A DNA stretch of 12,017 nt. Origin: Bdellovibrionia bacterium. Its GTDB lineage: Bacteria > Bdellovibrionota > UBA1018. Positions 1 to 11,999 of this stretch are shown here, in pieces. The stretch lies in assembly GCA_049424145.1 (NCBI GenBank), contig JBMSSC010000087.1, forward strand, positions 1 to 12,017, read 5' to 3'. The position numbers and the translations under genes are program-made. The notes beneath the pieces were generated by a model that was not told the origin of the DNA, did no database searches, and saw only the letters and a list, made by a program, of their open reading frames with translations. Each line of letters starts with the position of its first letter. The stretch's first letter is position 1.

Positions 1-138
1 AGCCGCCGCCGTGCCTCCAAAGACAATCAGAATTCCGTGGGGGTCTAAAAACATCGTAATGTCTTTGGCCGTGGTTGAAAGCGCGTAATACATCACGGAA
101 ATCCCGCCTAAGATGCCTGCAAGAGAGGATAGGTTCAT
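1..138 (-). CDS. motA: MotA/PomA-family stator A subunit, N-terminal 46 aa (continues beyond window edge)
   Basis: Manual translation from ATG at 138: MNLSSLAGILGGISVMYYALSTTAKDITMFLDPHGILIVFGGTAAA. This is TM1 followed by the F-x-D-x-x-[GS]-x-L-I-V-x-G-G-T signature of MotA/PomA TM2. The start overlaps the upstream stop (ATGA, 135-138). Confidence 0.88.
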   Translation of the reverse strand, partial: MNLSSLAGILGGISVMYYALSTTAKDITMFLDPHGILIVFGGTAAA

Positions 139-647
139 GATTTTCCAGTCTCCTTCCTTAAGATACTCTTCCAGAGCTGAAATTGACTGATGACATAGTT
201 GTCATCGAGGTCTCTGAGGCGGGTGGCGAGAGTTTGGATTGCGTTTTGATAGAATTCAAGCTTCATGGTGGGATCCGACTCCAAGAGTTCCATGAACTTT
301 TTCTTGGAGACATAAAATAGAGTGCACGGGGTGATGGCTCGGACAGTGGCTGTTCTGGGGTTTTCATCCAAAAGAGAGAGCTCGCCAAAGAAGCTTCCCC
401 CTTTGAGTTGAGCCAGATCGTAGTGATCTCCGGTGAGTTTATTGGTCTTAAAGATCCCGGCCGTTCCCTCTAAGAGCAGGTAGAGTCCCCAGCTAAGCTC
501 CCCTTCAATGATGATGTTCGTATGAGATTCAACTCTTAGGTGCTGGCCCAAGGAGATCAAGCGTTCAAGATTATTTTGGTTTAACGATTGAAGCAGTTTG
601 ATCTTCTTCAGTAAGGAGAACTCCGAGATCTCAGCAGGGGCATTCAT
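135..647 (-). CDS. Stand-alone cyclic nucleotide-binding (CNB) domain protein, 170 aa
   Basis: IIIEGE..GLYLLLEG and an intact phosphate-binding cassette FFGELSLLDENPRTATVRA, followed by a C-helix. There is no room for a Crp/Fnr HTH. Confidence 0.92.
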   Translation of the reverse strand: MNAPAEISEFSLLKKIKLLQSLNQNNLERLISLGQHLRVESHTNIIIEGELSWGLYLLLEGTAGIFKTNKLTGDHYDLAQLKGGSFFGELSLLDENPRTATVRAITPCTLFYVSKKKFMELLESDPTMKLEFYQNAIQTLATRLRDLDDNYVISQFQLWKSILRKETGKS

Positions 648-2896
648 CCGGCGCTCCTTTCTGTGACCACGGTTGCATCCGGTGGATTATCGGAGAACAT
701 CCGCTCGTTGGTTTCAATGAGGTTAATCAGTCCTTCATTGGCCATGATCTTCATCCGGTTTAAGACTTTGCGCTCCACGTTTTGATAGGTCTCTCGACTA
801 AAGACTGGGGCAATCGCAATTTCCTCTTCAAGTTCAGCGACAAGATCCTTCGGGGCTTTTGAGTAAATTGCATGACGCACCTCTTGAGGTGCTCCTTTTA
901 AGAACGGGATGAGCTCCTCGTGTTTTAGGCTTAAGACCACCTCGAGTAACTGTCCATCGCGGAGGTAGCGGAGCGTATCGGTGCTGACGAGCTTACTTTT
1001 GACCGTACGAGCACTGTCGGGATTGCTGAGCTCAAGGCTTTTTAAAACCGACTTCTGAATCGCATGTCCAGTCCGCTCCAGAAGTCCCACGAGCACCTCA
1101 GATCCAGGTAAAGCCTCCGTGTTGAGTCGGGGATTTTCTTTTTTCTTTCTCTTTAAGGCAGCTGCAACGTTGAAGATGAAGTCCTTGGGAAGATAATCGA
1201 TTCGAGAGAGCTCCGTGAGGACGGACATCCGCTCTTCGGCCTCCATTTGACTATAGATTGCAGCGCGCTTCTGAGGATCACACTGCGTGAGCACAATGGA
1301 TTTCACTGTGATGGATTCGGCCCGGATGAGCTCAAGGATTTGAGTTCCATCCATCTCACTTAAGAAGTCAAAGAAGTTGGAGGATCGATTGCCGAGGACC
1401 ACTAGTTTTCCAGCCGTGGTTCGGCTGTGGAGTTTTTTTAGGAGATTAAATTTTTCCTCATCCTTTAAAGTGATGGGATTTTTGGCGTAGTAATCCATTA
1501 ATTCCATGAGATCGCTTTGTAAGGTGGGGTCTCTAAGCATCTCAACGATGATTCCGTCGCCAAAGAGGTGAATGTACTCGGCAGTGACCTCAACCCCTTC
1601 CTCAGTGAGCACTTTACTAAACACTTGTTTTGCCACTCGAGGGCTCTGAGCAAAAATTGCGGTGAGCTCTTCGTGGAGTCGCTCAATCTCATAGCGCTGG
1701 GAGATGGGGTTGACGTTCTCAGAGAGAGAGCCCCCCCCGTCCTGAGGGGCGGAGCGAGCGATCGTAGGGGCATTGGCTGAGGCATTCTCTGAGGGGCTTA
1801 AGGGGTAAATGCGCGAGTAAGGAGAGCTGCTTGGGTTGGATTTTTTGAGTAAAGAGACGGATATAAAAATCAAAAGAGCAAGAACGGAGAGGGCAAACAG
1901 GAGAGCTGGGATTCTGAGTTTTTGCATTTCCTGGATGACGGCGTCTCCGTTTTCAACTCGCTCAATCTTTTCAATTCGTTCGGTTTTCTCTAGTCGAGAG
2001 TTATTGGACGAGCTTGTGCTACTGGATTCATTTCGGCTGTCGGTCTTATACTCACTTTTCCTCTCTGGGTCATTGGCCTCGGAGGCAAGTCCCCGAGAGC
2101 CACTAAAGCGAGCCACGGGAAACCTTAAGTTCTTAGCCGTCAGTCGGACGTTTCGATAGGCGTTTGTTTTAAGCCTCAGCATCTCAAGGAGATTGGATTT
2201 CTCCTCGGGGCTTAGGCTCTCATCCATCAGGATGGTGGCTGAGATTTCTTTGATTCGAACCGTGGTCCCCCCTTCTTGAATGAACTCGCCTAGGGCTCCG
2301 TACTGGGCCTCTTCGCCATTGACCACTTCCGTCTGCAAGTTGAAATCCCCAAGCAGGCAGGCTGAGTTACAGAACTCACGAAGCAGGGACTCTACTTTTC
2401 CTTGAAACTCTTTGGAGATTTTCTCTCGGATCTCGGTGATTTTGGTCTCCGAGCCTTGGGGCATTGGAAAGTGTGCCGTTTGAGCATCAATCTTCACCGG
2501 GTAATCCAGTGTGTCTAAGAATTGTTGAATGAGCTCAATCAACTTCGTTCGAGAAACAGGTCCCACCTTGTCATCAATGAGAATTTTCACGACGGAGGAC
2601 TCAGGGGTGAGCTCCGATGAGTTTCGGATGTCCTCTTCAAAACCGGGGGAGAAGAGTTGGGAGGAGCCCGGGCTCACCACGGTGCTCACGCTAACGAGGC
2701 GGCAGTACTCATGGCAGTATCGATCGAGCAGGGGCTCTAGGAGGTGGCGAATTTGGTTTTCTGAGGATTTTTTTACTACTTCAAAAGACGAAAGAGCAAA
2801 ACCCAGGGCGGGAGCAATCCAGAACGAGGCGATTGACCCCACTAAAATCAGCAGAGGAACCCACTTGAGTTGAAGGCCTCTCTGCGCTTGCTTCAT
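644..2896 (-). CDS. Membrane-anchored FliF-like/FliG fusion protein, 750 aa
   Basis: N-terminal signal/TM (aa ~12-35). Two ~100-aa RBM3-like repeats (aa ~45-144, ~160-260; IKEISATILMDESLSPEEKSNLLEML resembles FliF IKRLSVAVLVD..LS.EEL..I..LV). TM at aa 329-350. FliF-C-like helices (LHEELTAIFAQSPRVAKQVFSKVLTEE). FliG-N (GVEVTAEYIHLFGDGIIVEML), FliG-M (FFDFLSEMDGTQILELIRAE...) and FliG-C (FLKGAPQEVRHAIY...EGLINL). The FliG part is clear; the FliF-like part is less certain. Confidence 0.8.
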   Translation of the reverse strand: MKQAQRGLQLKWVPLLILVGSIASFWIAPALGFALSSFEVVKKSSENQIRHLLEPLLDRYCHEYCRLVSVSTVVSPGSSQLFSPGFEEDIRNSSELTPESSVVKILIDDKVGPVSRTKLIELIQQFLDTLDYPVKIDAQTAHFPMPQGSETKITEIREKISKEFQGKVESLLREFCNSACLLGDFNLQTEVVNGEEAQYGALGEFIQEGGTTVRIKEISATILMDESLSPEEKSNLLEMLRLKTNAYRNVRLTAKNLRFPVARFSGSRGLASEANDPERKSEYKTDSRNESSSTSSSNNSRLEKTERIEKIERVENGDAVIQEMQKLRIPALLFALSVLALLIFISVSLLKKSNPSSSPYSRIYPLSPSENASANAPTIARSAPQDGGGSLSENVNPISQRYEIERLHEELTAIFAQSPRVAKQVFSKVLTEEGVEVTAEYIHLFGDGIIVEMLRDPTLQSDLMELMDYYAKNPITLKDEEKFNLLKKLHSRTTAGKLVVLGNRSSNFFDFLSEMDGTQILELIRAESITVKSIVLTQCDPQKRAAIYSQMEAEERMSVLTELSRIDYLPKDFIFNVAAALKRKKKENPRLNTEALPGSEVLVGLLERTGHAIQKSVLKSLELSNPDSARTVKSKLVSTDTLRYLRDGQLLEVVLSLKHEELIPFLKGAPQEVRHAIYSKAPKDLVAELEEEIAIAPVFSRETYQNVERKVLNRMKIMANEGLINLIETNERMFSDNPPDATVVTERSAG

Positions 2897-3657
2897 AGAG
2901 ATCCTCCGGTGTAGAGACTTCTTTTCCGATCGAGGAATTTTTTCAGATTCAGGTTTCTAGGATCAAATCGAAGGGCTTGGCTCCAGGCCTGAAGCGCCAG
3001 GTCCTTGCGTCCGAGCTTATCCAGCAGGGTTCCCCTCATTTCATAGAGTTTGGAATCCGTTTGATACTGCCGAATGAGTTCGTCCGTCTCAATGAGGGCG
3101 GCTTCAAATCGGGTCATGCGATAGAGTTGTTTGATGTGATCCACGGCACCTAGGTAGCTTGAGGAGTGAGTGGAGGCGCCCTCTTCACTTGGAACGAGAT
3201 CTAAGGTGCGCTCAATGTCCCGAATTCGAGATTCATCCTCCGCAGCGCCTTGGGGAAATCGATTGACGATGTCACGATCAGAGAACGTCGGGGCGCGGTT
3301 TTTATAAGATTCATCGACCATTTCTGGGGAATCCATCATGGAACCAGACAGAGAGGTAAGCCCACGTCCTGAGTTTTTAAATGCAGGGGAGACGGGCAGC
3401 ACAAATTCACTTAAGTTTCTTCGGTCCCCAGGGATCTCCAGCTCCACGGAGCGATCCCCTTTTTTGGTTCTCAGGATCATGTTCTGATGATTCTCCGAGG
3501 TGAGTTCGGGGCGGTATTGGGAAAACGGATTGGAGATGGGTTGCCGCAGGGGCTTTGGATTCACCCCAAAAATCGTATTCAGCCCAGCGCAGCCTGAGGC
3601 TCCGAGGCTTAAACCGATCAGTAGAGCGGCAGATGATGGGGTCCAAATCTGTTTCAA
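2893..3657 (-). CDS. TPR-containing lipoprotein, 254 aa
   Basis: TTG start after GAGG. Lipobox LGASG^C (Cys23). C-terminal TPR helices (KLYEMRGTLLDKLGRKDLALQAWSQALRFDPRN). ATGA overlap with the next gene. Confidence 0.85.
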   Translation of the reverse strand: MKQIWTPSSAALLIGLSLGASGCAGLNTIFGVNPKPLRQPISNPFSQYRPELTSENHQNMILRTKKGDRSVELEIPGDRRNLSEFVLPVSPAFKNSGRGLTSLSGSMMDSPEMVDESYKNRAPTFSDRDIVNRFPQGAAEDESRIRDIERTLDLVPSEEGASTHSSSYLGAVDHIKQLYRMTRFEAALIETDELIRQYQTDSKLYEMRGTLLDKLGRKDLALQAWSQALRFDPRNLNLKKFLDRKRSLYTGGSL

Positions 3658-3701
3658 CTTCGTTTCCTCATGGCTTCATTAAGTTTCAACTTTTCGTTCC
3701 T
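3651..3701. repeat. Imperfect direct repeat duplicating the RBS plus TTG start of the TPR lipoprotein gene
   Basis: gtttcaacttcgtttcct (3651-3668) and gtttcaacttttcgttcct (3683-3701). On the minus strand these read AGGAAACGAAG-TTG-AAAC and AGGAACGAAAAG-TTG-AAAC. Confidence 0.6.
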
Positions 3702-4826
3702 TTAAAACAAAACACTCACTCCTAAACCGTATTCAAGACCTGTAATCGTGGCCTGTCCTCCTAGGAAGGAGGTGGAGGCCGGGCGGTAGCCTAAATTGAT
3801 TCCAGTGGCAAAGTGTTTGCCTAATCTCCACTCATAGCCTGCGCGCACGAGCCCGCCTAGGTAGCCCGAGGCATAGGTTCCTCCAATGCCTAAAAGGAGG
3901 CTTCCTCGGAGTAAATTATAGTTCTCCTCCTCTCCAATGAAGTTCCACGCATGTAAGAAGACGAGGGTGAGGTTAAATCCAAAGCTGGCATAGAGATCGG
4001 TTGAAACCGCTGCAGAGCGATTGACGATGGTGGAGGCATTGGTCATATAATTTGCCTCAAAGCCCACTTCTTTTTTTCGGTTATCGTAGCGTTCCATCAT
4101 GCGATAGCCCAAAGCCAGATTCCCAGTGGGGCTTGGGTGATTGGGTTGAACGAGGTAGTAAATGATCAGACGAGATTGCACCAAGGGAGCATATTCGGTG
4201 GCTCGATGGGCTGAATCAATCTGGGTATAATCCACGCCTCGTTTAAAGGCAGCTGATCGGGAGTTCTCCGAGTTGTAGCTTCGGGACCAGAGGATGCTGT
4301 CGGTTTCTGGGTCGGTGATGGTCATGGACATCACGATCCCGGTGGGCTCAAAACTGAAGGCCACGTCCATGAATCGGGCAATCCCCGTTGCTTTAGCAAT
4401 CCGGGTGAGCTCCATGGGATCCGTCTCTGGGGATTTGATGACGATTTGGTCCCCATCGAGGCTGGTTTTTCTCGCACGACAGGGGAGGCATTGAATCACG
4501 CGAGTCTTGGTGTTTTTTAAAATCGTTTCGGTGATGAGAAGCTCTAAGTGGGCTTTAAAGGAGGGGGGAACGTTCTCGCTTAAGGCGAGGTTTCGGATGG
4601 AAAGGTCCTTAAGTCCGTTGACGTTTCCGTTTTTAAGATCGAACTCAAAGTCGCCCAGAACCTCATCTAAGACTTGGTAAAAGTCTCGCGTGCCTCCACT
4701 GGGGGAGGCTGCGGCCTGGAGTGGAGCAATCGGCGTGCTCGGCGTTTCAGCATGCGCCTGAAGACCACTGAGTAGAACTCCGCTCAGGATGCTCAAGGTG
4801 CTCAAGATGCGGATGAATGCGCTCAT
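3702..4826 (-). CDS. Secreted protein: FlgO/CsgG/LpoB-like N-terminal domain plus putative C-terminal outer-membrane beta-barrel (ORF open to 4898; ATG 4826 preferred)
   Basis: Sec signal MSAFIRILSTLSILSGVLLSGLQAHA^E. Alpha/beta domain ending IAKATGIARFMD...MTITDPETDSILWSRSY (D-x-ET-x-x-I-L-W-S pattern of CsgG/FlgO/LpoB-type folds), with a CLPC motif. The C-terminal ~170 aa are amphipathic Gly/aromatic strands ending GLEYGLGVSVLF (terminal Phe, BAM signal-like). Confidence 0.7.
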   Translation of the reverse strand: MSAFIRILSTLSILSGVLLSGLQAHAETPSTPIAPLQAAASPSGGTRDFYQVLDEVLGDFEFDLKNGNVNGLKDLSIRNLALSENVPPSFKAHLELLITETILKNTKTRVIQCLPCRARKTSLDGDQIVIKSPETDPMELTRIAKATGIARFMDVAFSFEPTGIVMSMTITDPETDSILWSRSYNSENSRSAAFKRGVDYTQIDSAHRATEYAPLVQSRLIIYYLVQPNHPSPTGNLALGYRMMERYDNRKKEVGFEANYMTNASTIVNRSAAVSTDLYASFGFNLTLVFLHAWNFIGEEENYNLLRGSLLLGIGGTYASGYLGGLVRAGYEWRLGKHFATGINLGYRPASTSFLGGQATITGLEYGLGVSVLF

Positions 4827-4983
4827 TGGATAGACTCGGTTTCGCACAGTTTTTTCTTCATGCTCCTTTCTCTGAGACTGAATCGGATTTTTATTCAAAG
4901 GAGTTTAGGTTTATCCCTAAGATGCATGAAAATCGTTTGATCTCTCTGAATAAGAGGAATGAGACCCGGTGGGTAGAAAACTC

Positions 4984-5011
4984 TAAGTGATTGGATAGGG
5001 GTTTCCGATAC
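4984..5011 (+). promoter_or_regulatory. Possible sigma28 (FliA)-type promoter for the lipoprotein gene
   Basis: TAAG-N16-TCCGATAC versus consensus TAAA-N15-GCCGATAA, 20 nt upstream of ATG 5032. Confidence 0.4.
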
Positions 5012-5031
5012 GTCTCTGAGTGGAGAGGGCT

Positions 5032-6096
5032 ATGGAGCAGTCGGTCAGAAAATGGAACATGAAGAAGGGAATGCAACTCACTGCAATCAGTGGGTTTGTT
5101 TTTGCTTTCGCATGTTCTACCGTAGAAATCATCCCCGCCCCAATGCCCAACCCTCCGGTGTTCACGAGCGTTCCGCATCCGGCAGGATCAGATTTGGGGG
5201 ATGTGGCTGCAATTTTTACCGATGAAATGGCTCCTCGAGATCCTGATTTTTTTAATCAGTGTGACGCAAAGTATCGAAAGCTCACAGAGCTCACCAAGAG
5301 TCGAGACGAGATTCATGAAGGTTTAAGAGAATTAGTTAAGCAGGATCCGGTTCATTATCATTGGTGTTTTTATGGCAAGATTTTGGATTTGGAAAAGTCA
5401 TTAAAGAATGAATCATTTGTAGAACTCAGGCAGAAGCGAATCCTCGATACGTTCGAGTTCTTGGCGCCTTTGGGTAAGGTTTTCTCCTCTGAGTACCACG
5501 ACTCTCGCTACTTAAGAGCAGCCGTGGTGCGATACCAGAAGTTGAGTGAGTGGGCCTTTTACCGAAGGCTTGAGCTCACTCCGGTTGGGACTTCTCAATT
5601 GGTGAAGTCGAGCAATCCTTTTGGACTCTGGCGAGATACATTGGATACGATTTCAGTTTTGGAGAAGTATCGGCTTTTAGCTCAACCCTCGGATCGACTC
5701 AAAGAGGATGCTGCAGCTTCGCTCATGGGTTCAGAGGCGGTGGAGCCTAAGCCCGTGCCTCAAGCTTCTCCTGTTCCCTCAGTTGCCAGTGGGGCTCAAA
5801 AGCAAACCCCAGAAGCGCCCATTGCTGCGCCTGTTGTCCCTGTGGCTCAGTCCCCAGCCCCCGTGATTCAAGCAGCAACGCCTCCGGTGAAGCCAGAAGT
5901 CTCAAAGGTCAAACCTCCTGCTTCAGCCTCAAAAGAAGCCAGTGCTGGGGCTCAGAAGAAGCCCGAACCCAAGAAAGTGGAGCCTGCCCCAAAGGCAGAT
6001 GAAGCCGTCTCCGACGAATCAGCCTCATCCGAAGAAAGTGGGGATCTGCAATTGCCCATTGAAGGAGAAGAGGCCAGTATGGATTCCTCAGGTTAG
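5032..6096 (+). CDS. Hypothetical lipoprotein with helical core and Pro/Ala/Lys-rich, acidic disordered C-terminal tail (start 5032 or 5059)
   Basis: GGAGAGG before ATG 5032. Signal MKKGMQLTAISGFVFAFA^C with a lipobox-like Cys. Core has two further Cys (NQCDA, YHWCFY). The last ~130 aa are low complexity. Confidence 0.78.
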   Translation: MEQSVRKWNMKKGMQLTAISGFVFAFACSTVEIIPAPMPNPPVFTSVPHPAGSDLGDVAAIFTDEMAPRDPDFFNQCDAKYRKLTELTKSRDEIHEGLRELVKQDPVHYHWCFYGKILDLEKSLKNESFVELRQKRILDTFEFLAPLGKVFSSEYHDSRYLRAAVVRYQKLSEWAFYRRLELTPVGTSQLVKSSNPFGLWRDTLDTISVLEKYRLLAQPSDRLKEDAAASLMGSEAVEPKPVPQASPVPSVASGAQKQTPEAPIAAPVVPVAQSPAPVIQAATPPVKPEVSKVKPPASASKEASAGAQKKPEPKKVEPAPKADEAVSDESASSEESGDLQLPIEGEEASMDSSG

Positions 6097-6146: not shown

Positions 6147-6893
6147 TCAGCAACTGGGGGGGAGTTTTTCTCGCTGGATTTTTGGATCGCCTGGGTTCCA
6201 ACTTAAAAAGGATCCATGAATTCTTGGAAATCCGATATTAATATATTGAGCGGCTCGATTGCCAACATGAAAACTCATCTCATCTAAGTCGTGGCAGTGA
6301 CCTAGGATCACAAAATCAGCACCCTGTGAAATCCGTTCAGCCGCATAACTACGAAACGTTCGTCTTAGGTACTCCATCTGCGCAAGCGGGAGGTTTTTGT
6401 GCTGGCTCCGGCTCTTTTGGCTGCTGAATTGCCCAAAGCGACTTAACCACTCCCCCGGTACAAGTGCAACGAGAGCCTTCATCAGTGGGCTTCGAAAAAA
6501 AAGTCGCAGGAGACGGTAGCCGTAGTCCCGGGGGTCCACGAGATCTCCGTGAGCACAATGAAAGATCTTTCCCTGCACTTCAATTTGAATCGTACGCGAA
6601 CAAACCGTGACGCCGGGAATTTTTTCAAACACCTTTTTCATCATAAAGTCATGGTTGCCTTCGATGTAGTAGATGCGAACCCCTCGCTGGGCTGCGGCTT
6701 GGATTTGATTAAAAAAAGAGGAATAAAGGTGGAGGAAGATGGTTTTATTGCCAACCCAGACATCAAACAAGTCCCCGGCAAGAACCAAGGTGTCGCTGGG
6801 CTTCGCACGCAGTTGGATGAGTGCAATGAGAGACGCATAAACGGGATCTTGGGGGCCCCAAATATGAAGATCGGAGACTGCAATTAAGCTCAT
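6147..6893 (-). CDS. lpxH: UDP-2,3-diacylglucosamine diphosphatase (LpxH-family metallophosphoesterase)
   Basis: Motifs SDLH, GDLFDVWVG, GNHDF, HGDLVDPRDYGY and GHCH in LpxH order and spacing. It has GNHD rather than the GNRD of E. coli LpxH. Confidence 0.8.
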   Translation of the reverse strand: MSLIAVSDLHIWGPQDPVYASLIALIQLRAKPSDTLVLAGDLFDVWVGNKTIFLHLYSSFFNQIQAAAQRGVRIYYIEGNHDFMMKKVFEKIPGVTVCSRTIQIEVQGKIFHCAHGDLVDPRDYGYRLLRLFFRSPLMKALVALVPGEWLSRFGQFSSQKSRSQHKNLPLAQMEYLRRTFRSYAAERISQGADFVILGHCHDLDEMSFHVGNRAAQYINIGFPRIHGSFLSWNPGDPKIQREKLPPSC

Positions 6894-6915: not shown

Positions 6916-7302
6916 CTAAAGCTTCTGATCAAGGATTTTTCCGCAAAACTTCAGTTCCGAGGATTTTCCACCGCGCAGTTTAATGAACTCTTCGCCTGAG
7001 AATTGCCTTAGGGTCTTGCCGTTTGAGTCCTTTAAAATCACGCGTAACCCCAGGGAATGGGTTTCTAGATGAACGCTCAGTCCATGGGCCTGGGCTTGGC
7101 TATCGGACTGAAAGTCTTCGAGGGCTTGCTCCAGTTGTTGCGGTGAAAAGGACTCGTCTGAGGGGGACTCTTCAAACGGGGGTTTTCGATCCTTTTTACC
7201 GTGTTCTTGAGAAAACGATCGATCCGAAGAGGGGGAATCCTCTTTTCGGTCCCTCACCCCGCGGGGATATCCAAATGCTGTGGTTAGAGGTTGAATTTTC
7301 AT
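6916..7302 (-). CDS. flaG: FlaG-family flagellar protein, 128 aa
   Basis: Disordered N-terminus, then QLEQALEDF...GLSVHLE...LRVILKDSNGKTLRQFSGEEFIKL...GKILDQKL, matching the FlaG pattern (V.VVD..TGEVIRQIP.EE.L...G.L.D...). Lies directly downstream of a flagellin. Confidence 0.78.
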   Translation of the reverse strand: MKIQPLTTAFGYPRGVRDRKEDSPSSDRSFSQEHGKKDRKPPFEESPSDESFSPQQLEQALEDFQSDSQAQAHGLSVHLETHSLGLRVILKDSNGKTLRQFSGEEFIKLRGGKSSELKFCGKILDQKL

Positions 7303-7486: not shown

Positions 7487-8314
7487 TTAGAGCAGCTTGA
7501 GGGCCTGGGCAGGAGCTTGGTTTGCCTGCGCAAGAACCGCGATTCCGGCTTGCTGCAGGATGTTCGACTTGACGAGCTCATAGGTTTCTTGGGCCAGATC
7601 CGTATCCATGATGTTGGAGCGCGCTTGGGTGTACTGTTCTGTGATGTTTTGAATGGTTCGGTTCTCCGATAGGAGTCGGTTTTGGATGGCACCTAACGTG
7701 GCTCGCGTGCTTAAGACCTTACCAAAGGCCTCATCAATGACTCCCAGGGAGTCCTCTGCCCCACTTAAGGAGTTGAGGTTGATTCCGTCCACCCCGAGAG
7801 TTCTGGACCTGACATCGGCCAAGCGAGTATCAAACTGAAGACGATCGTTTTCTGAGTTTTCCGTGCCAACTTGGAACGTCAGGTTGTCGACCGAGCCGTT
7901 GAGCAGATGAATGCCGTTAAATGTGGTGGACTCGGCAATGTGATTGAATCCTTGGATAATGCTTTCGGCTTCCAGTTGGAGGGAGGCGCGTTCGTTTTCT
8001 CCCACCGTATCGGAGGCGGCTTGAATTCCTAACTCCCTGAGTCGGATCAACCCATTACTGAGTTCAGTCATGGCTCCCTCGGCTACTTGAGCAAAGGAGG
8101 CAGCGTCCATGGTGTTTCTCTCAGCTTGTTTGAGGGAGCGGATTTGTTTTCTCAACCGTTCGGCAATGGAGAGGCCTGCGGGGTCTTCTGCTGCACTGGT
8201 GATGCGCTCCCCTGAGGCAATGCGTTGAAAGCTCGTCTTTTGTTCCGACATGGATCGCGATAGCGAGTGGACGATGGAAAGTGAACTGAGATTGTTATTA
8301 ATGACTAAGCCCAT
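7487..8314 (-). CDS. fliC: Flagellin (short, D0/D1 only, divergent), 275 aa
   Basis: True start is ATG 8314 (MGLVINNN) after RBS AAGGAG. Motifs IASGERITSAAEDPAGLSIA, QVAEGAM, FNGIHLL, RATLGAIQNRL, ILQQAGIAVLAQAN. Confidence 0.95.
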   Translation of the reverse strand: MGLVINNNLSSLSIVHSLSRSMSEQKTSFQRIASGERITSAAEDPAGLSIAERLRKQIRSLKQAERNTMDAASFAQVAEGAMTELSNGLIRLRELGIQAASDTVGENERASLQLEAESIIQGFNHIAESTTFNGIHLLNGSVDNLTFQVGTENSENDRLQFDTRLADVRSRTLGVDGINLNSLSGAEDSLGVIDEAFGKVLSTRATLGAIQNRLLSENRTIQNITEQYTQARSNIMDTDLAQETYELVKSNILQQAGIAVLAQANQAPAQALKLL

Positions 8315-8373
8315 AAAAAAACTCCTTCTCCAGCAACCGAGAATTGGTTTTTTACGTCTGTCTCTGTTCAAGA

Positions 8374-8413
8374 CATGGCCCGTGCCCCTTCGTTTGGAGG
8401 GGGCACTTCCATG
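8374..8413 (-). promoter_or_regulatory. GC-rich stem-loop in the ~180-nt 5' leader of the second flagellin
   Basis: gtgcccc (8382-8388) / ggggcac (8400-8406), extended by catgg (8374-8378) / ccatg (8409-8413). The mRNA carries CAUGGAAG at the stem base. Confidence 0.55.
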
Positions 8414-8498
8414 GATTCCGCTCGTGTAACAGCAAGATACAGCAAGCAGACGCAAGTCAACTGAGCCTCAGGGGGATTCCCTTGCGCTCTTATGACTC

Positions 8499-8525
8499 GT
8501 ATCGGCACGCTGCGTCAAAACTTGA
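8499..8525 (-). promoter_or_regulatory. sigma28 (FliA) promoter of the second flagellin
   Basis: Minus strand TCAA-N15-GCCGATAC (TCAAGTTT-N11-GCCGATAC), near consensus. Confidence 0.85.
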
Positions 8526-8596
8526 GTAAAAAATACAACTATTAAGATCTGAAGCTTCAAAGTGGGCTAGCTTCCGAGAATCTCAGGACATTTTCG

Positions 8597-8633
8597 AAAA
8601 CCCTGGGGAGAGCCCAAGAGGACCCTCCCCAGG
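8597..8633 (-). terminator. Probable intrinsic terminator of the first flagellin
   Basis: cctggggag (8602-8610) / ctccccagg (8625-8633), extendable with G-U pairs on the minus strand and followed by GTTTT. It begins 21 nt after the stop codon. Confidence 0.7.
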
Positions 8634-8654
8634 TGGTGTTCGAAGAACTGCAGA

Positions 8655-9488
8655 TTAGCTAATGAGCTTGAGAGCTAACATGTTGCTTTGATTGGCTTGA
8701 CTGAGGACTGACGTTCCTGCTTGGGCCAGGATGTTATTTTTTGCTAAATCAGCGGCCTCTTGAGCCATATCCGCATCTCGGATGCGGCTATTTGCACTGG
8801 AGAGGTTTTCGTCATAGACCCTCAAGGTGTTGACGGCCGATTGGAGTCGGGTTTGTAAGGACCCCAGTTCTGCACGGTTTTCAATGAGGGTATTGACGGA
8901 TCCATCAATCGTCGAGAGGGCTTCCCGAGCTCCCTCTTTGGTTGCAACGGAGAGGCCCGTTAAACCCAGTTTGCCCAGCGATACATCGGTCTTGTTCGTA
9001 TCAATGGCAAATCGATCTTCATCCGGATTATTGTGAGTTCCGATTTGGACATCAATGTTATTGCCATTTCCAGACAATAACTTCATGCCGTTGTACTCGG
9101 TGGAGGTCGAAATTCTCACAATTTCTTGTTTCAATTGTGTGATTTCCTTATCAATGAAGCCTCTTTCCGTATCTCCGATGGTGTCGGAAGCCGACTGAAT
9201 GGCGAGTTCCCGGAATCGAACTAAGATGTTGCTGATCTCGTTCATTCCCCCTTCGGCCGTTTGGATCATAGAAACGCCGTCGCTTGCGTTTTTGATGTCC
9301 TGGCGGATCGAGCGAATCTGGCCTTTCATTTTCTCCGAGATCGCAAGGCCTGCCGCATCGTCTGCGGACTTATTGATTCGAGAGCCCGAAGCAATGTGTT
9401 CTAAAGTCTCTTTTTGAGCGGCAGTGCTTGCGTTTAAGAAGCGCTGCGCAACGAGTGATTGTACGTTCGTACTAATGACGATACCCAT
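8655..9488 (-). CDS. fliC: Flagellin (short, D0/D1 only), 277 aa
   Basis: Canonical motifs IASGSRINKSADDAAGLAISE, IQTAEGGM, RAELGSLQTRL, SRIRDADMAQE, ILAQAGTSVLSQAN. RBS GGAGGAG. Confidence 0.97.
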   Translation of the reverse strand: MGIVISTNVQSLVAQRFLNASTAAQKETLEHIASGSRINKSADDAAGLAISEKMKGQIRSIRQDIKNASDGVSMIQTAEGGMNEISNILVRFRELAIQSASDTIGDTERGFIDKEITQLKQEIVRISTSTEYNGMKLLSGNGNNIDVQIGTHNNPDEDRFAIDTNKTDVSLGKLGLTGLSVATKEGAREALSTIDGSVNTLIENRAELGSLQTRLQSAVNTLRVYDENLSSANSRIRDADMAQEAADLAKNNILAQAGTSVLSQANQSNMLALKLIS

Positions 9489-9770: not shown

Positions 9771-10697
9771 CTATCGAGAAATCAGATTCGCAGCCGAATA
9801 GGGATCGATCTGTTTTTTCAAAAGTTGGTCTAAAACTTCTTGCCCCGAAGGGGTTTGAAAAGCCTCAATAACTGACTGATTCAGTCTTTCTGTGAGGATG
9901 TCCAGGACCTCGCTTTTGATCCATTCCCGGGCTTGAAGGAGCCGTTTGCCGCTTTGCGTTAAGTAGGTTTGATGAGACTGAATGCTTTGAGCCAAGGCCT
10001 CAATGCCCCCGTTTTTCACCGCCTCGGTCTTTAAAACGGGAATCATCCAGCTGGTTTCATCATGAGGAGCCAGTCCAATCATGTTGATGAGTTCTTTCAA
10101 CAGAGCATCGGCACCACTGCGGTCACTTTTATTGATCACAAAGAGGTCTGCAATCTCCATGAGCCCAGCCTTCATCACCTGAATGGAGTCCCCACTTTCG
10201 GGAACAAGCACAACAATAATACTCTGCGCAAGCTTCAGGATGTCGAGCTCCGTTTGTCCCACCCCGGCTGTTTCCACTAAGATCACGTCAAATCCTGCGG
10301 CATCTAAGATGAGCACCACTTCCTTAGTTGCATGGGAGAGTCCCCCATGTTTTCCCCGAGTGCCGAGTGATCGAATGTACACGCCTGGATCCCCCGAGTG
10401 CTGCTGCATTCGGATTCGATCTCCCAGCACGGCTCCCCCTGAAAACGGACTGGAGGGGTCAACGGCCACGATGGCTACTTTTTTTCCTTCTTTCCTGAGT
10501 TGGGCCGTGAGGCGATCCACGAGGGTGGATTTTCCGGCACCGGGGGGACCGGTGATGCCCCAGACCTGAGCCTTGCCGGTTCGGGGATAAAGAGAAGCTA
10601 AGAGCTCAGGAATATCGGAGTCTCGGTTCTCCACTTTCGAGATCAGGCGGGCAAGGGCTAATTTTTGACCGGCAAGCAGATCTTGGACTAAGTTCAT
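9771..10697 (-). CDS. meaB: Methylmalonyl-CoA mutase-associated GTPase MeaB/ArgK, 308 aa
   Basis: GITGPPGAGKST (P-loop), AVDPSSPFSGGAVLGDRIRM, ETAGVGQ, MKAGLMEIAD, NKSD. Start ATG 10697 (MNLVQDLL) avoids overlap with the divergent gene. Confidence 0.95.
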   Translation of the reverse strand: MNLVQDLLAGQKLALARLISKVENRDSDIPELLASLYPRTGKAQVWGITGPPGAGKSTLVDRLTAQLRKEGKKVAIVAVDPSSPFSGGAVLGDRIRMQQHSGDPGVYIRSLGTRGKHGGLSHATKEVVLILDAAGFDVILVETAGVGQTELDILKLAQSIIVVLVPESGDSIQVMKAGLMEIADLFVINKSDRSGADALLKELINMIGLAPHDETSWMIPVLKTEAVKNGGIEALAQSIQSHQTYLTQSGKRLLQAREWIKSEVLDILTERLNQSVIEAFQTPSGQEVLDQLLKKQIDPYSAANLISR

Positions 10698-10733
10698 CCT
10701 TGATCCATCCCAAGAAAATGCCGATATTGCAAC

Positions 10734-11999
10734 ATGGAACCCCAATCTCTCGGAGTCAAAGAGTCCCTGTGTGCTTTAGCCATTCTCCACTGCCTTCCTC
10801 TGGTTTTATTTGCTTTATGGGAGGATCACTTCAGGGGTTCACTCCAAGAACTCAGGCAAGCGCAGGAGAAAGTCGAAGTCGACCGGGAACGTGATCAGAT
10901 CAAGTTTGTCAGCTTCTTAGTCCTCCTCACTCAGCTTCTTTTGTTCTTGGGCTCCTTTGATTTACAAGCCGCCCATCCCTCGGGGGCTTTGGGGATTTTC
11001 GTCCTCGCTCTTTTGGGCCAGTTTTTCATTCAATCTCAAGCCGAGGCTCACTTGCAGTCCCCAGAGATTTCTGCAAAGGAGGGGGGGATGCTTTTATGGA
11101 AGGCCTTCCTTTTTTGGCTCTTGGGAGTGGGGGTGAACCTGGCGTGCTTGGTGGGCTCAACGGGTCTGACTTTGGTTTTACTTCAGCTGCTTCAACCGAA
11201 GCTGGCCCTAGGGCTTCTGGCGTTGATCGTCTCAGCAATTTCTGGGGTTCTCTTTGGGATTCATCTCAACTTTTTATTCTCTCCTTTTTACTTAAAGAAC
11301 CTATTCCCCATCCAACCGTTGGAGGATTTGAGATTAAGGCGCTTGCTTTCTGAGTGCTTCACTCGATTTCAGCTTCCAGTGCCTGATCTTCTCGTGGTTC
11401 ATCTGAAGACTCGAACCTTGAGCCAAAATATCTTAGCAGGATCCCCCTACCGCAAGCACAGGCTGAAGGCTGCCTACTTGATCTCCCATCAGGTCTTAAG
11501 CCTACTTTCTGAAAAGGAGCTTTTGGCTCTGGTTCTCAACCAGGTGAGTTATTTCGTTCTCAATCAAGCGGGGAAAAGAAATCGACTCCTGGGGGGGCTG
11601 GTCTTATTGACGGCTGGGCTTGGGACGGCGGCTATTTTTCTGGGAAACCGGTGGTTTCAAAAAGAGGGATTCACGGAGCTTTTTGGGGTGATGGTTTCCT
11701 TGAGTTTACTCACCCTCTCCTATCGCTTTTTGTCTCGTCAGATTCAAAAGCAGGAGCTTGAGCGAGATTCCTATACGATTTTAACGATGGGGGTTTCGTA
11801 TTCAGATTTCTCTACGGCACTAAGAAAGCTCGATTCCCTCCAGGCGGAGTTTCAACTTCTCACTCAATCAGGTGAGGGGAAACATCCGTTGGCTCAGGGG
11901 CTGCCTGAGACTGAAAAAAGACTGGAGGCTTTAAAGAAAGCCATTCCCTTGGAACCCTCTTCGTCCTCGCAAGAAAGCTCGTTTTCTCAAGCCGCTTAG
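10734..11999 (+). CDS. Polytopic membrane protein, M48 (HtpX/Ste24) peptidase homolog lacking zinc ligands
   Basis: About 7 hydrophobic segments. M48 scaffold PLEDLRLRRLL..F...P, LSEKELLALVLNQVSY (expected HELGH), QELERD (E.EAD), ALRKL, LPETEKRL (expected HP....RI). Confidence 0.75.
   Translation: MEPQSLGVKESLCALAILHCLPLVLFALWEDHFRGSLQELRQAQEKVEVDRERDQIKFVSFLVLLTQLLLFLGSFDLQAAHPSGALGIFVLALLGQFFIQSQAEAHLQSPEISAKEGGMLLWKAFLFWLLGVGVNLACLVGSTGLTLVLLQLLQPKLALGLLALIVSAISGVLFGIHLNFLFSPFYLKNLFPIQPLEDLRLRRLLSECFTRFQLPVPDLLVVHLKTRTLSQNILAGSPYRKHRLKAAYLISHQVLSLLSEKELLALVLNQVSYFVLNQAGKRNRLLGGLVLLTAGLGTAAIFLGNRWFQKEGFTELFGVMVSLSLLTLSYRFLSRQIQKQELERDSYTILTMGVSYSDFSTALRKLDSLQAEFQLLTQSGEGKHPLAQGLPETEKRLEALKKAIPLEPSSSSQESSFSQAA

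Follow-up and report, generated by a model that had tools for sequence, protein, structure and literature searches.

A candidate machine built from flagellar motor parts, encoded with its own MotA/MotB stator in a six-gene operon of Bdellovibrionota

The stretch of DNA described here (hereafter the window) is the entire 12,017-base contig C87 (GenBank JBMSSC010000087.1, assembly GCA_049424145.1) of a Bdellovibrionia bacterium, whose draft genome comprises 2.69 Mb in 193 contigs and is 95% complete. One end of it carries an operon in which flagellar-type rotor and stator genes stand beside genes for outer-membrane and periplasmic proteins. Open reading frame calling on the window gave five co-oriented genes on the minus strand, which we call A, B, C, D and motA, the last of them represented by its 5′ part (Table 1). 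ATGA overlaps at the B/C, C/D and D/motA junctions were read directly in the sequence, and A and B are spaced by 44 nt, confirming an initial reading made from the letters alone (the sequence-only reading), which had described five co-oriented genes with the last four joined by ATGA overlaps.

Since the window is a whole contig, reading past its edge, as the sequence-only reading had proposed for motA and motB, led to another contig, C91, from which the remainder of motA and a complete motB were recovered. On its minus strand, C91 opens with the 214 MotA residues that the window lacks, and MotB comes next. Joining the two parts (46 + 214) yields a MotA of 260 residues with zero missing columns against 20 orthologous MotAs, most of which have 260-262 residues. 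The left end of C87 shares no overlap of 12 or more bases with the end of any contig, and the join rests on protein alignment and synteny. The seamless MotA junction and the presence of MotB on C91 indicate a six-gene operon, A-B-C-D-motA-motB. Contig C11 had first been suspected as the continuation and was dropped, its gene being TolQ-like. A promoter and terminator scan of positions 1-5400 gave no signal above shuffles.

Table 1. Coordinates of the operon, of the domains of its products and of the divergent neighbour (window positions unless a contig is named)
Feature	Position	Strand	Remarks
Gene A	3702..4826	-	Longest frame to 4898 (TTG); likely start ATG 4826, opening a typical signal peptide
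A, periplasmic LpoB/TolB-N-like domain	~4263-4679	-	From the structure model
A, C-terminal 8-stranded outer-membrane beta-barrel	3705-4190	-	Ends in Phe
Gene B	2893..3657	-	TTG 3657 start, GAGGA ahead; tetratricopeptide repeat (TPR) lipoprotein
Gene C	644..2896	-	750 residues; FliF-like/FliG-like fusion
C, ring-type domains	2126..2800	-	Residues 33-257; two tandem alpha-beta-beta-alpha-beta domains (33-141, 149-257)
C, linker and membrane helix	1844..2104	-	Residues 265-351; disordered Ser/Thr/Asn-rich linker, juxtamembrane motif, helix 328-351
C, FliG-like part	692..1699	-	Residues ~400-735; FliG_M 1133-1345, FliG_C 719-1039
Gene D	135..647	-	170 residues; stand-alone cyclic-nucleotide-binding domain protein
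motA, 5′ part	1..138	-	First 46 codons, cut by the contig end
motA, remainder	contig C91 10551-11195	-	214 residues
motB	contig C91 9509-10540		343 residues; after motA
Divergent gene	5020..6096	+	358 residues; Pro/Ala/Lys-rich tail; family-less; beside A in 18/20 loci

The core of the operon is protein C, whose C-terminal half matches two FliG domains in Pfam, FliG_M (PF14841, 34.1 bits against a cut-off of 25, residues 518-588) and FliG_C (PF01706, 51 bits against a cut-off of 23.3, residues 620-726). A profile of 21 C family members searched against the PDB found 3hjl as its best FliG (E 2.3e-12), with residues 63-327 of 329 aligned; since the alignment begins at residue 63 of 3hjl, C may also contain a partial N-like FliG domain. 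The EHPQR motif of FliG_M docks FliM in the flagellar motor. At this site the genome's own FliG reads E-H-P-Q and C reads E-S-I-T (E-S-[IL]-T in the family), with E527, S528 and T530 invariant and a later arginine, R565, kept in the 21-row alignment. Loss of HPQ, together with the absence of linked fliM and fliN, makes a switch complex unlikely. In the torque helix, the canonical K-R...D-D pattern of the genome's own FliG aligns to K683-D684...E691-E692 of C with the basic residue one column off, with E692 conserved in at least 90% of the 21 family rows; the E. coli FliG torque residues facing MotA are given as R281, D288 and D289 in the available text of PMC12505986. Many C orthologues end in a K-K-V-A-G-W tail that the C of the window does not carry.

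An AlphaFold2 model from 21 sequences (mean predicted local distance difference test score, pLDDT, 77; 90-96 in the domain blocks) revealed the two tandem alpha-beta-beta-alpha-beta domains in the N-terminal half of C. Each of them contains a C-x3-C pair, nearly invariant in the first domain (C61/C65) and invariant in the second (C176/C180). In Foldseek, the top seven matches of the N-terminal part were all Salmonella FliF MS-ring chains (E 3.4e-7 to 2.3e-5), and structural alignment of either domain with the third ring-building motif (RBM3) of FliF by VIA-align gave Z of 10-11.6 with a root-mean-square deviation of 2.6-3.0 Å over 96-100 residues. The two domains are followed by a disordered periplasmic linker of 50-100 residues and by an invariant juxtamembrane motif (E309, I311-E315, G317, D318) ahead of the membrane helix, and most family members have an N-terminus that resembles a cleavable signal peptide. 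According to the model, mature C would thus be a single-pass inner-membrane protein with periplasmic ring-type domains and a cytoplasmic FliG-like part. The sequence-only reading had called C a FliF-FliG fusion: this holds for its architecture and fold, as borne out by the structure models and the FliG domains, and the FliF side of the label is left unproven by sequence, both Pfam and hhalign giving null results there. A very short, possible FliF-C-terminal-like motif was seen by eye just before the FliG-like part, in comparison with the genome's FliF.

Protein A matches no family in Pfam or NCBIfam. Its structure model (pLDDT 77.6) shows eight antiparallel strands at residues 240-397, forming a barrel that aligns with OprF-N, OmpA, OmpW, NspA and PagL at Z 14-15.7, and a C-terminal phenylalanine is found in 19 of 21 rows of the family. 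The outer-membrane barrel proposed by the sequence-only reading, invisible to Pfam, is therefore borne out by the model. Its FlgO-like label, in contrast, finds no support in Pfam, NCBIfam or the listed fold matches: the N-terminal domain of A resembles LpoB and the N-terminal domain of TolB, aligning with LpoB at Z 9.7-9.8, and TolB and LpoB head the Foldseek list (TolB N-domain, E 3e-7 to 1e-5), in which one LPHT-ring chain of unnamed identity stands at rank 46 and no FlgO-named chain appears among the matches listed. The lipobox cysteine of B, Cys23, is invariant across all 21 rows (21 of 21); the middle of the protein is a long low-complexity stretch, and a TPR region (TPR_2, 22.5 bits, under the Pfam cut-off) lies at the C-terminus. 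D is matched by cNMP_binding (PF00027) at 63.7 bits against a cut-off of 27.5 over residues 38-125. Co-folding of the periplasmic domain of A with mature B and the periplasmic domains of C scored 0.28 against a mark of 0.32 in a run without controls and speaks neither for nor against contact.

The stator genes are of the flagellar kind by their domains. The C91 part of MotA matches MotA_ExbB at 73.8 bits, and MotB matches MotB_plug (60.2 bits) and OmpA (49.8 bits) and has an aspartate in its translated membrane helix. For the orthologous MotA and MotB of one relative's locus (L027), the best NCBIfam matches were the MotP/PomA/MotA and MotD/MotS/MotB models, over their full length. In the stator phylogeny proposed by the sequence-only reading, the MotA of the operon fell with the MotA-type rows, which split from ExbB/TolQ, represented by the genome's five, at 100/99 support. 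Plug and OmpA-like domains mark the flagellar stators, which form one clade, and known non-flagellar motors fall in another, as far as the available text of PMC12505986 describes them. In its loop, the MotA family keeps a K-K pair and an acidic residue about 10 positions later, a pattern that may correspond to E. coli R90/E98. The source genome (G000) has four MotAB pairs. One other pair, on contig C160 (L070 2967-4389), has a TPR lipoprotein gene directly before motA that is not detected by the B profile; another, on contig C18 (L068 99-5263), is preceded by family-less genes for 628 and 228 residues and followed by one for a HEAT-repeat protein of 356 residues.

The operon is conserved among relatives. 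Their 20 loci, examined with flanks, all keep the order A-B-C-D-motA-motB, A and B being present in 20/20 and D in 19/20, so that the conservation of gene order on which the sequence-only reading had staked its claim is upheld. C was found at E <= 1e-100 in 32 of 40 relatives; a further one has a contig-end fragment, and in the other seven the matches are no stronger than those of canonical FliG. When the phylum was sampled evenly, 68 of the 91 genomes from the window's order had the N-terminal part of C, with only two weak matches among 309 genomes outside it, and the homologues of C carry the names Bdellovibrio, Bdellovibrionales or Bdellovibrionota. In a profile search of 1.84 billion representatives, 104 proteins passed E <= 1e-30 and 434 passed E <= 1e-10; many have 545-680 residues and match both the N-terminal part and the FliG part of C. 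The ESM Atlas gave leads only, namely long FliG-containing clusters, commonest in Myxococcota, Balneolota, Bacteroidota, Pseudomonadota and Elusimicrobiota, with the FliF C-terminal Pfam family present in 22% and 39% of the members of two such clusters.

Six diverged loci, reached by way of the two weak matches outside the order and bringing the total examined to 26, carry the module in two further arrangements: A-B-motA-motB-C (L050, L051, L062, L065) and A-B-C-motA-motB (L064, L066). They were found in families f19, f26, f18, f2 and f22, and D is absent from all six. The genomes G105 and G091 have the order A-B-motA-motB-C; their C proteins, 557 and 545 residues long, respectively, contain FliG_M and FliG_C, and hhalign relates A and C of G105 to the families of the window at 99.6% and 98.9%. 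G224 and G097 share this order with a weaker FliG signal, and A-B-C-motA-motB occurs in G025, which belongs to the window's own order, and in G288. The five core genes therefore stay together across three gene orders and at least six families of the phylum. A homologue search from the diverged C of L050 returned only itself. One further candidate, L063 (G133), encodes a GYF-domain protein without MotAB and was dropped as unrelated, and at L067 (G018) an additional A gene stands with no other gene of the module.

The source genome has a separate flagellar set, as the sequence-only reading needed for its proposal, with one each of canonical FliF (206 bits), FliG (141.6 bits) and FliM on contig C50 and of FlhA on contig C175. 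A, B and C have no paralogues in it. Its third FliG_C match is a protein of 157 residues on contig C29 (L004 1462-1935, minus strand; 42.1 bits) with little beyond this domain. No basal-body gene is linked to the module in the 26 loci examined. The sequence-only reading was correct that the window contains no basal-body, rod or export gene; two flagellin genes went unmentioned, which lie in tandem on the minus strand at 7487-8455 (Flagellin_N 113.8 bits) and 8655-9488 (127.9 bits), 2.6-4.6 kb upstream of the operon and on its strand.

The two diverged carriers G105 (91% complete) and G091 (89% complete) gave 0 matches to FHIPEP, Flagellin_N, YscJ_FliF and FliM. In both, the C of the module is the sole FliG_C match and its MotB the sole MotB_plug match; flagellated carriers have more of the latter (4 in G000, 4 in G224, 3 in G025, 3 in G097 and 2 in G288), and FlhA is present in G025, G097, G224 and G288. 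The data on G105 and G091 are the strongest argument that the stator of the module serves the module and not a flagellum. With the separate flagellar set, the motB found downstream, the conserved synteny and these two flagellum-free carriers, there is good support for the claim that the system is distinct from the flagellar basal body. Its extension to non-flagellated taxa stands for diverged forms in two genomes without detectable flagellar genes, and not for the window's own order, nearly all of which is flagellated.

On balance, we incline to the view that the operon encodes a flagellum-independent, six-gene machine driven by MotAB and built from flagellar motor parts, probably a rotary one. 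In such a machine, copies of C would assemble into a ring that is the analogue of MS-ring and FliG-ring at once; the FliF MS-ring has about 33-34 subunits. Ion flow through MotA5B2 would push the torque helix of FliG_C and so turn the C ring, while its periplasmic portion, on the long flexible linker, would engage A and/or B under the outer membrane. D would bind cAMP or cGMP and brake or declutch the motor through C or MotA. The fully specified version, namely a free-standing rotary envelope machine in which the C ring is spun by its own MotAB and drives outer-membrane-anchored A and B under cyclic-nucleotide gating in the window's form, is proposed more tentatively, at somewhat less than even weight. 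Surface motility, movement of outer-membrane cargo and envelope remodelling are candidates for its output. As the same core occurs with and without flagella, such a machine would be either a flagellar torque core re-used for a new output or a surviving relative of a rotor-stator pair older than the export-based flagellum.

A number of observations weigh against a flagellum-independent rotary machine. On the FliF side, Pfam found nothing in the N-terminal 362 residues of C, with no YscJ_FliF (PF01514) at E <= 0.01; hhalign of C with the genome's own FliF gave probabilities of 0.9% and 0.2%, which are not significant; and the unrelated alpha-beta-beta-alpha-beta folds of MamM-CTD and OsmC reach Z ~9, about 2 units under the FliF RBM3 match. 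On the FliG side, TIGR00207 (fliG) scores 52.3 bits on C, far under its cut-off of 226.7, with the match confined to model positions 109-326, FliG_N (PF14842) has no match in the window's C at E <= 0.01 in Pfam, and the diverged forms L064 and L066 show no evident acidic pair in the torque helix. The MotA and MotB of L027 do not reach the equivalog cut-offs (MotP 145.2 against 394; MotD 152.2 against 283), and the tree leaves open whether window-type and diverged MotAs form one clade. Of a more general nature, the two flagellum-free carriers are drafts about 90% complete with the diverged form, not the window's form; 110 of the 116 genomes in the window's order have FlhA, as do 67/67 of the high-quality ones; and flagellin genes lie within ~5 kb, in the flanks examined, at 10-11 of 20 loci as well as in the window. 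Near-universal FlhA and nearby flagellins make a flagellar link possible for the window's form. The loci examined contain no rod, axle or export-gate genes, which leaves a rotating ring without an evident load, and the C ring, its rotation and its contact with A or B are elements that we infer.

The lack of an axle also suggests a non-rotary transducer of the Tol-Pal/Ton type, which we regard as unlikely and still the foremost competitor. MotAB would here pull or twist single C molecules through the FliG-like domain and pass the work to A and B, for outer-membrane tethering or for control of peptidoglycan synthesis or constriction, for which neither a closed ring nor continuous rotation is needed. 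The LpoB- and TolB-like periplasmic domain of A, the TPR lipoprotein B, the disordered linker of C and its lack of a rod partner all accord with such a transducer. The motor, however, is of MotA/MotB type with plug and OmpA domains and stands apart from ExbB/TolQ; the partner domain is a FliG with a torque helix, a ring component in the known case; the periplasmic domains of C best match ring-building domains; and a separate tolQ-tolR-like cluster exists on contig C11, with possible tolA and tolB by position and length.

An accessory role at the flagellum, in which C, A and B surround an ordinary basal body as an extra stator scaffold, a disk or a sheath-related ring and the MotAB of the operon shares the driving of one flagellum with other stator sets, appears improbable. 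It would account for the distribution of FlhA and the flagellin genes noted above (in the window at 7487-9488), for the canonical FliG match in all 32 of the 32 relatives with C and for the four MotAB pairs of the genome. C has nevertheless lost the HPQ of its EHPQR motif, and since it brings a membrane anchor and ring-type domains of its own, it would be a competitor of FliF and FliG and not an addition to them; the 26 loci link no basal-body gene to the module, and the diverged modules of G105 and G091 occur without the five flagellar markers, their MotB being the sole MotB. These flagellum-free carriers fit poorly with an accessory role and equally with a regulatory decoy, in which membrane-bound C and the sensor D would park or sequester stators and tune flagellar torque without mechanical work: PilZ-type brakes do act at the MotA-FliG interface, and the small-molecule sensor D is translationally coupled between C and motA, but the decoy leaves unexplained the conserved outer-membrane partners A and B, the dedicated MotAB and the module in flagellum-free genomes, D is missing from 6/6 diverged forms, and we consider it very improbable.

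Several neighbours recur around the operon. The divergent gene next to A (Table 1) could be a seventh component of the module. On contig C91, 242 nt downstream of motB and on the same strand, a gene at 8206-9267 (L069 4207-5268, minus strand) encodes a protein of 353 residues that has a Cys-x2-Cys pair motif in its N-terminal region, matches no Pfam family and is kept in 15 of 20 loci. A MeaB GTPase gene lies near the operon at 9771-10745 on the minus strand, with homologues in 9 of 20 loci, and a methylmalonyl-CoA mutase gene (L051 3-1475) adjoins the diverged module of G091; this vicinity looks like old neighbourhood synteny. The rest of the window holds a metallophosphoesterase gene (Metallophos, 41.5 bits) and two family-less open reading frames (128 and 421 residues), at 6147-6893, 6916-7302 and 10734-11999.

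No description of such a module was found in the literature by full-text searches, supplements aside. What is new, in our best reading, is a flagellar torque core re-used or preserved outside the flagellum, and to our knowledge torque generation by FliG and MotA is known only inside it. If this reading is true, flagellar-type stators and a FliG rotor work without export apparatus, rod, hook and filament, and it becomes testable whether the flagellar rotor-stator core can exist, or once existed, alone. The module would also be a small candidate rotary motor, with five core proteins and, here, a sensor for cyclic nucleotides, a size convenient for reconstitution and structural studies.

Among known systems, the rotor-stator core of the flagellum comes closest to the module, and among single molecules an engineered FliF-FliG fusion does. 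With the flagellar core the module shares a MotA/MotB stator with plug and OmpA-like anchor, FliG_M and FliG_C with a charged torque helix, periplasmic folds like the RBMs of FliF and a membrane helix that links the periplasmic to the cytoplasmic part of C. It differs in that C is one polypeptide in place of two, which has two RBM-like domains, lacks a long beta-collar insertion and carries an apparently cleavable signal peptide where FliF has its first membrane helix. Unlike the flagellar core, the module also lacks HPQ and linked genes for FliM/FliN, export gate, rod, hook and filament, is partnered by an outer-membrane barrel protein, a TPR lipoprotein and a cyclic-nucleotide sensor, and in diverged forms occurs in genomes without flagellar genes.

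The engineered FliF-FliG fusions of Salmonella and Vibrio (PDB 8z4d/8z4g; PMC11481574) likewise place a FliF part before a FliG part in one chain, and the fusion chain 8z4d_1 was matched by both the C profile (E 2.5e-7) and the fold search (Z 10.4). They are laboratory constructs with full-length FliF inside a complete flagellum, whereas C is natural, has a much shorter FliF side and is not detectably FliF by sequence.

The Tol-Pal and Ton systems (TolQR-TolA-TolB-Pal-CpoB; ExbBD-TonB) resemble the module in their 5:2-type inner-membrane ion motor, bitopic protein and partners anchored in the outer membrane. The N-terminal domain of A has the LpoB/TolB-N fold, and B carries TPR, as does CpoB of the Tol system. 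The motor of the module, in contrast, is of MotAB and not of ExbB/TolQ type, coupling would use a cytoplasmic FliG-like domain and not a helix inside the motor, and the source genome keeps a Tol-like cluster of its own.

A non-flagellar, envelope-spanning precedent is the Agl-Glt gliding machinery of Myxococcus and Bdellovibrio, which comprises an ion motor, TPR proteins and outer-membrane beta-barrel proteins. We know of no FliG- or FliF-like component in Glt. The module likewise combines an ion motor with TPR and outer-membrane barrel proteins. The Agl motors (AglRS) belong to a generic TolQR-like group in the available text of PMC12505986. The second-messenger brakes YcgR and MotI resemble D as small nucleotide-binding proteins; D, which is encoded beside a FliG-like protein and MotA and may act at their interface, differs in having a cyclic-nucleotide-binding domain of CAP type and not a PilZ domain. 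The ion-driven 5:2 motor systems comprise the flagellum, Ton, Tol, Agl-Glt, Gld and Zorya, to which the module, if our reading is true, would add a further class.

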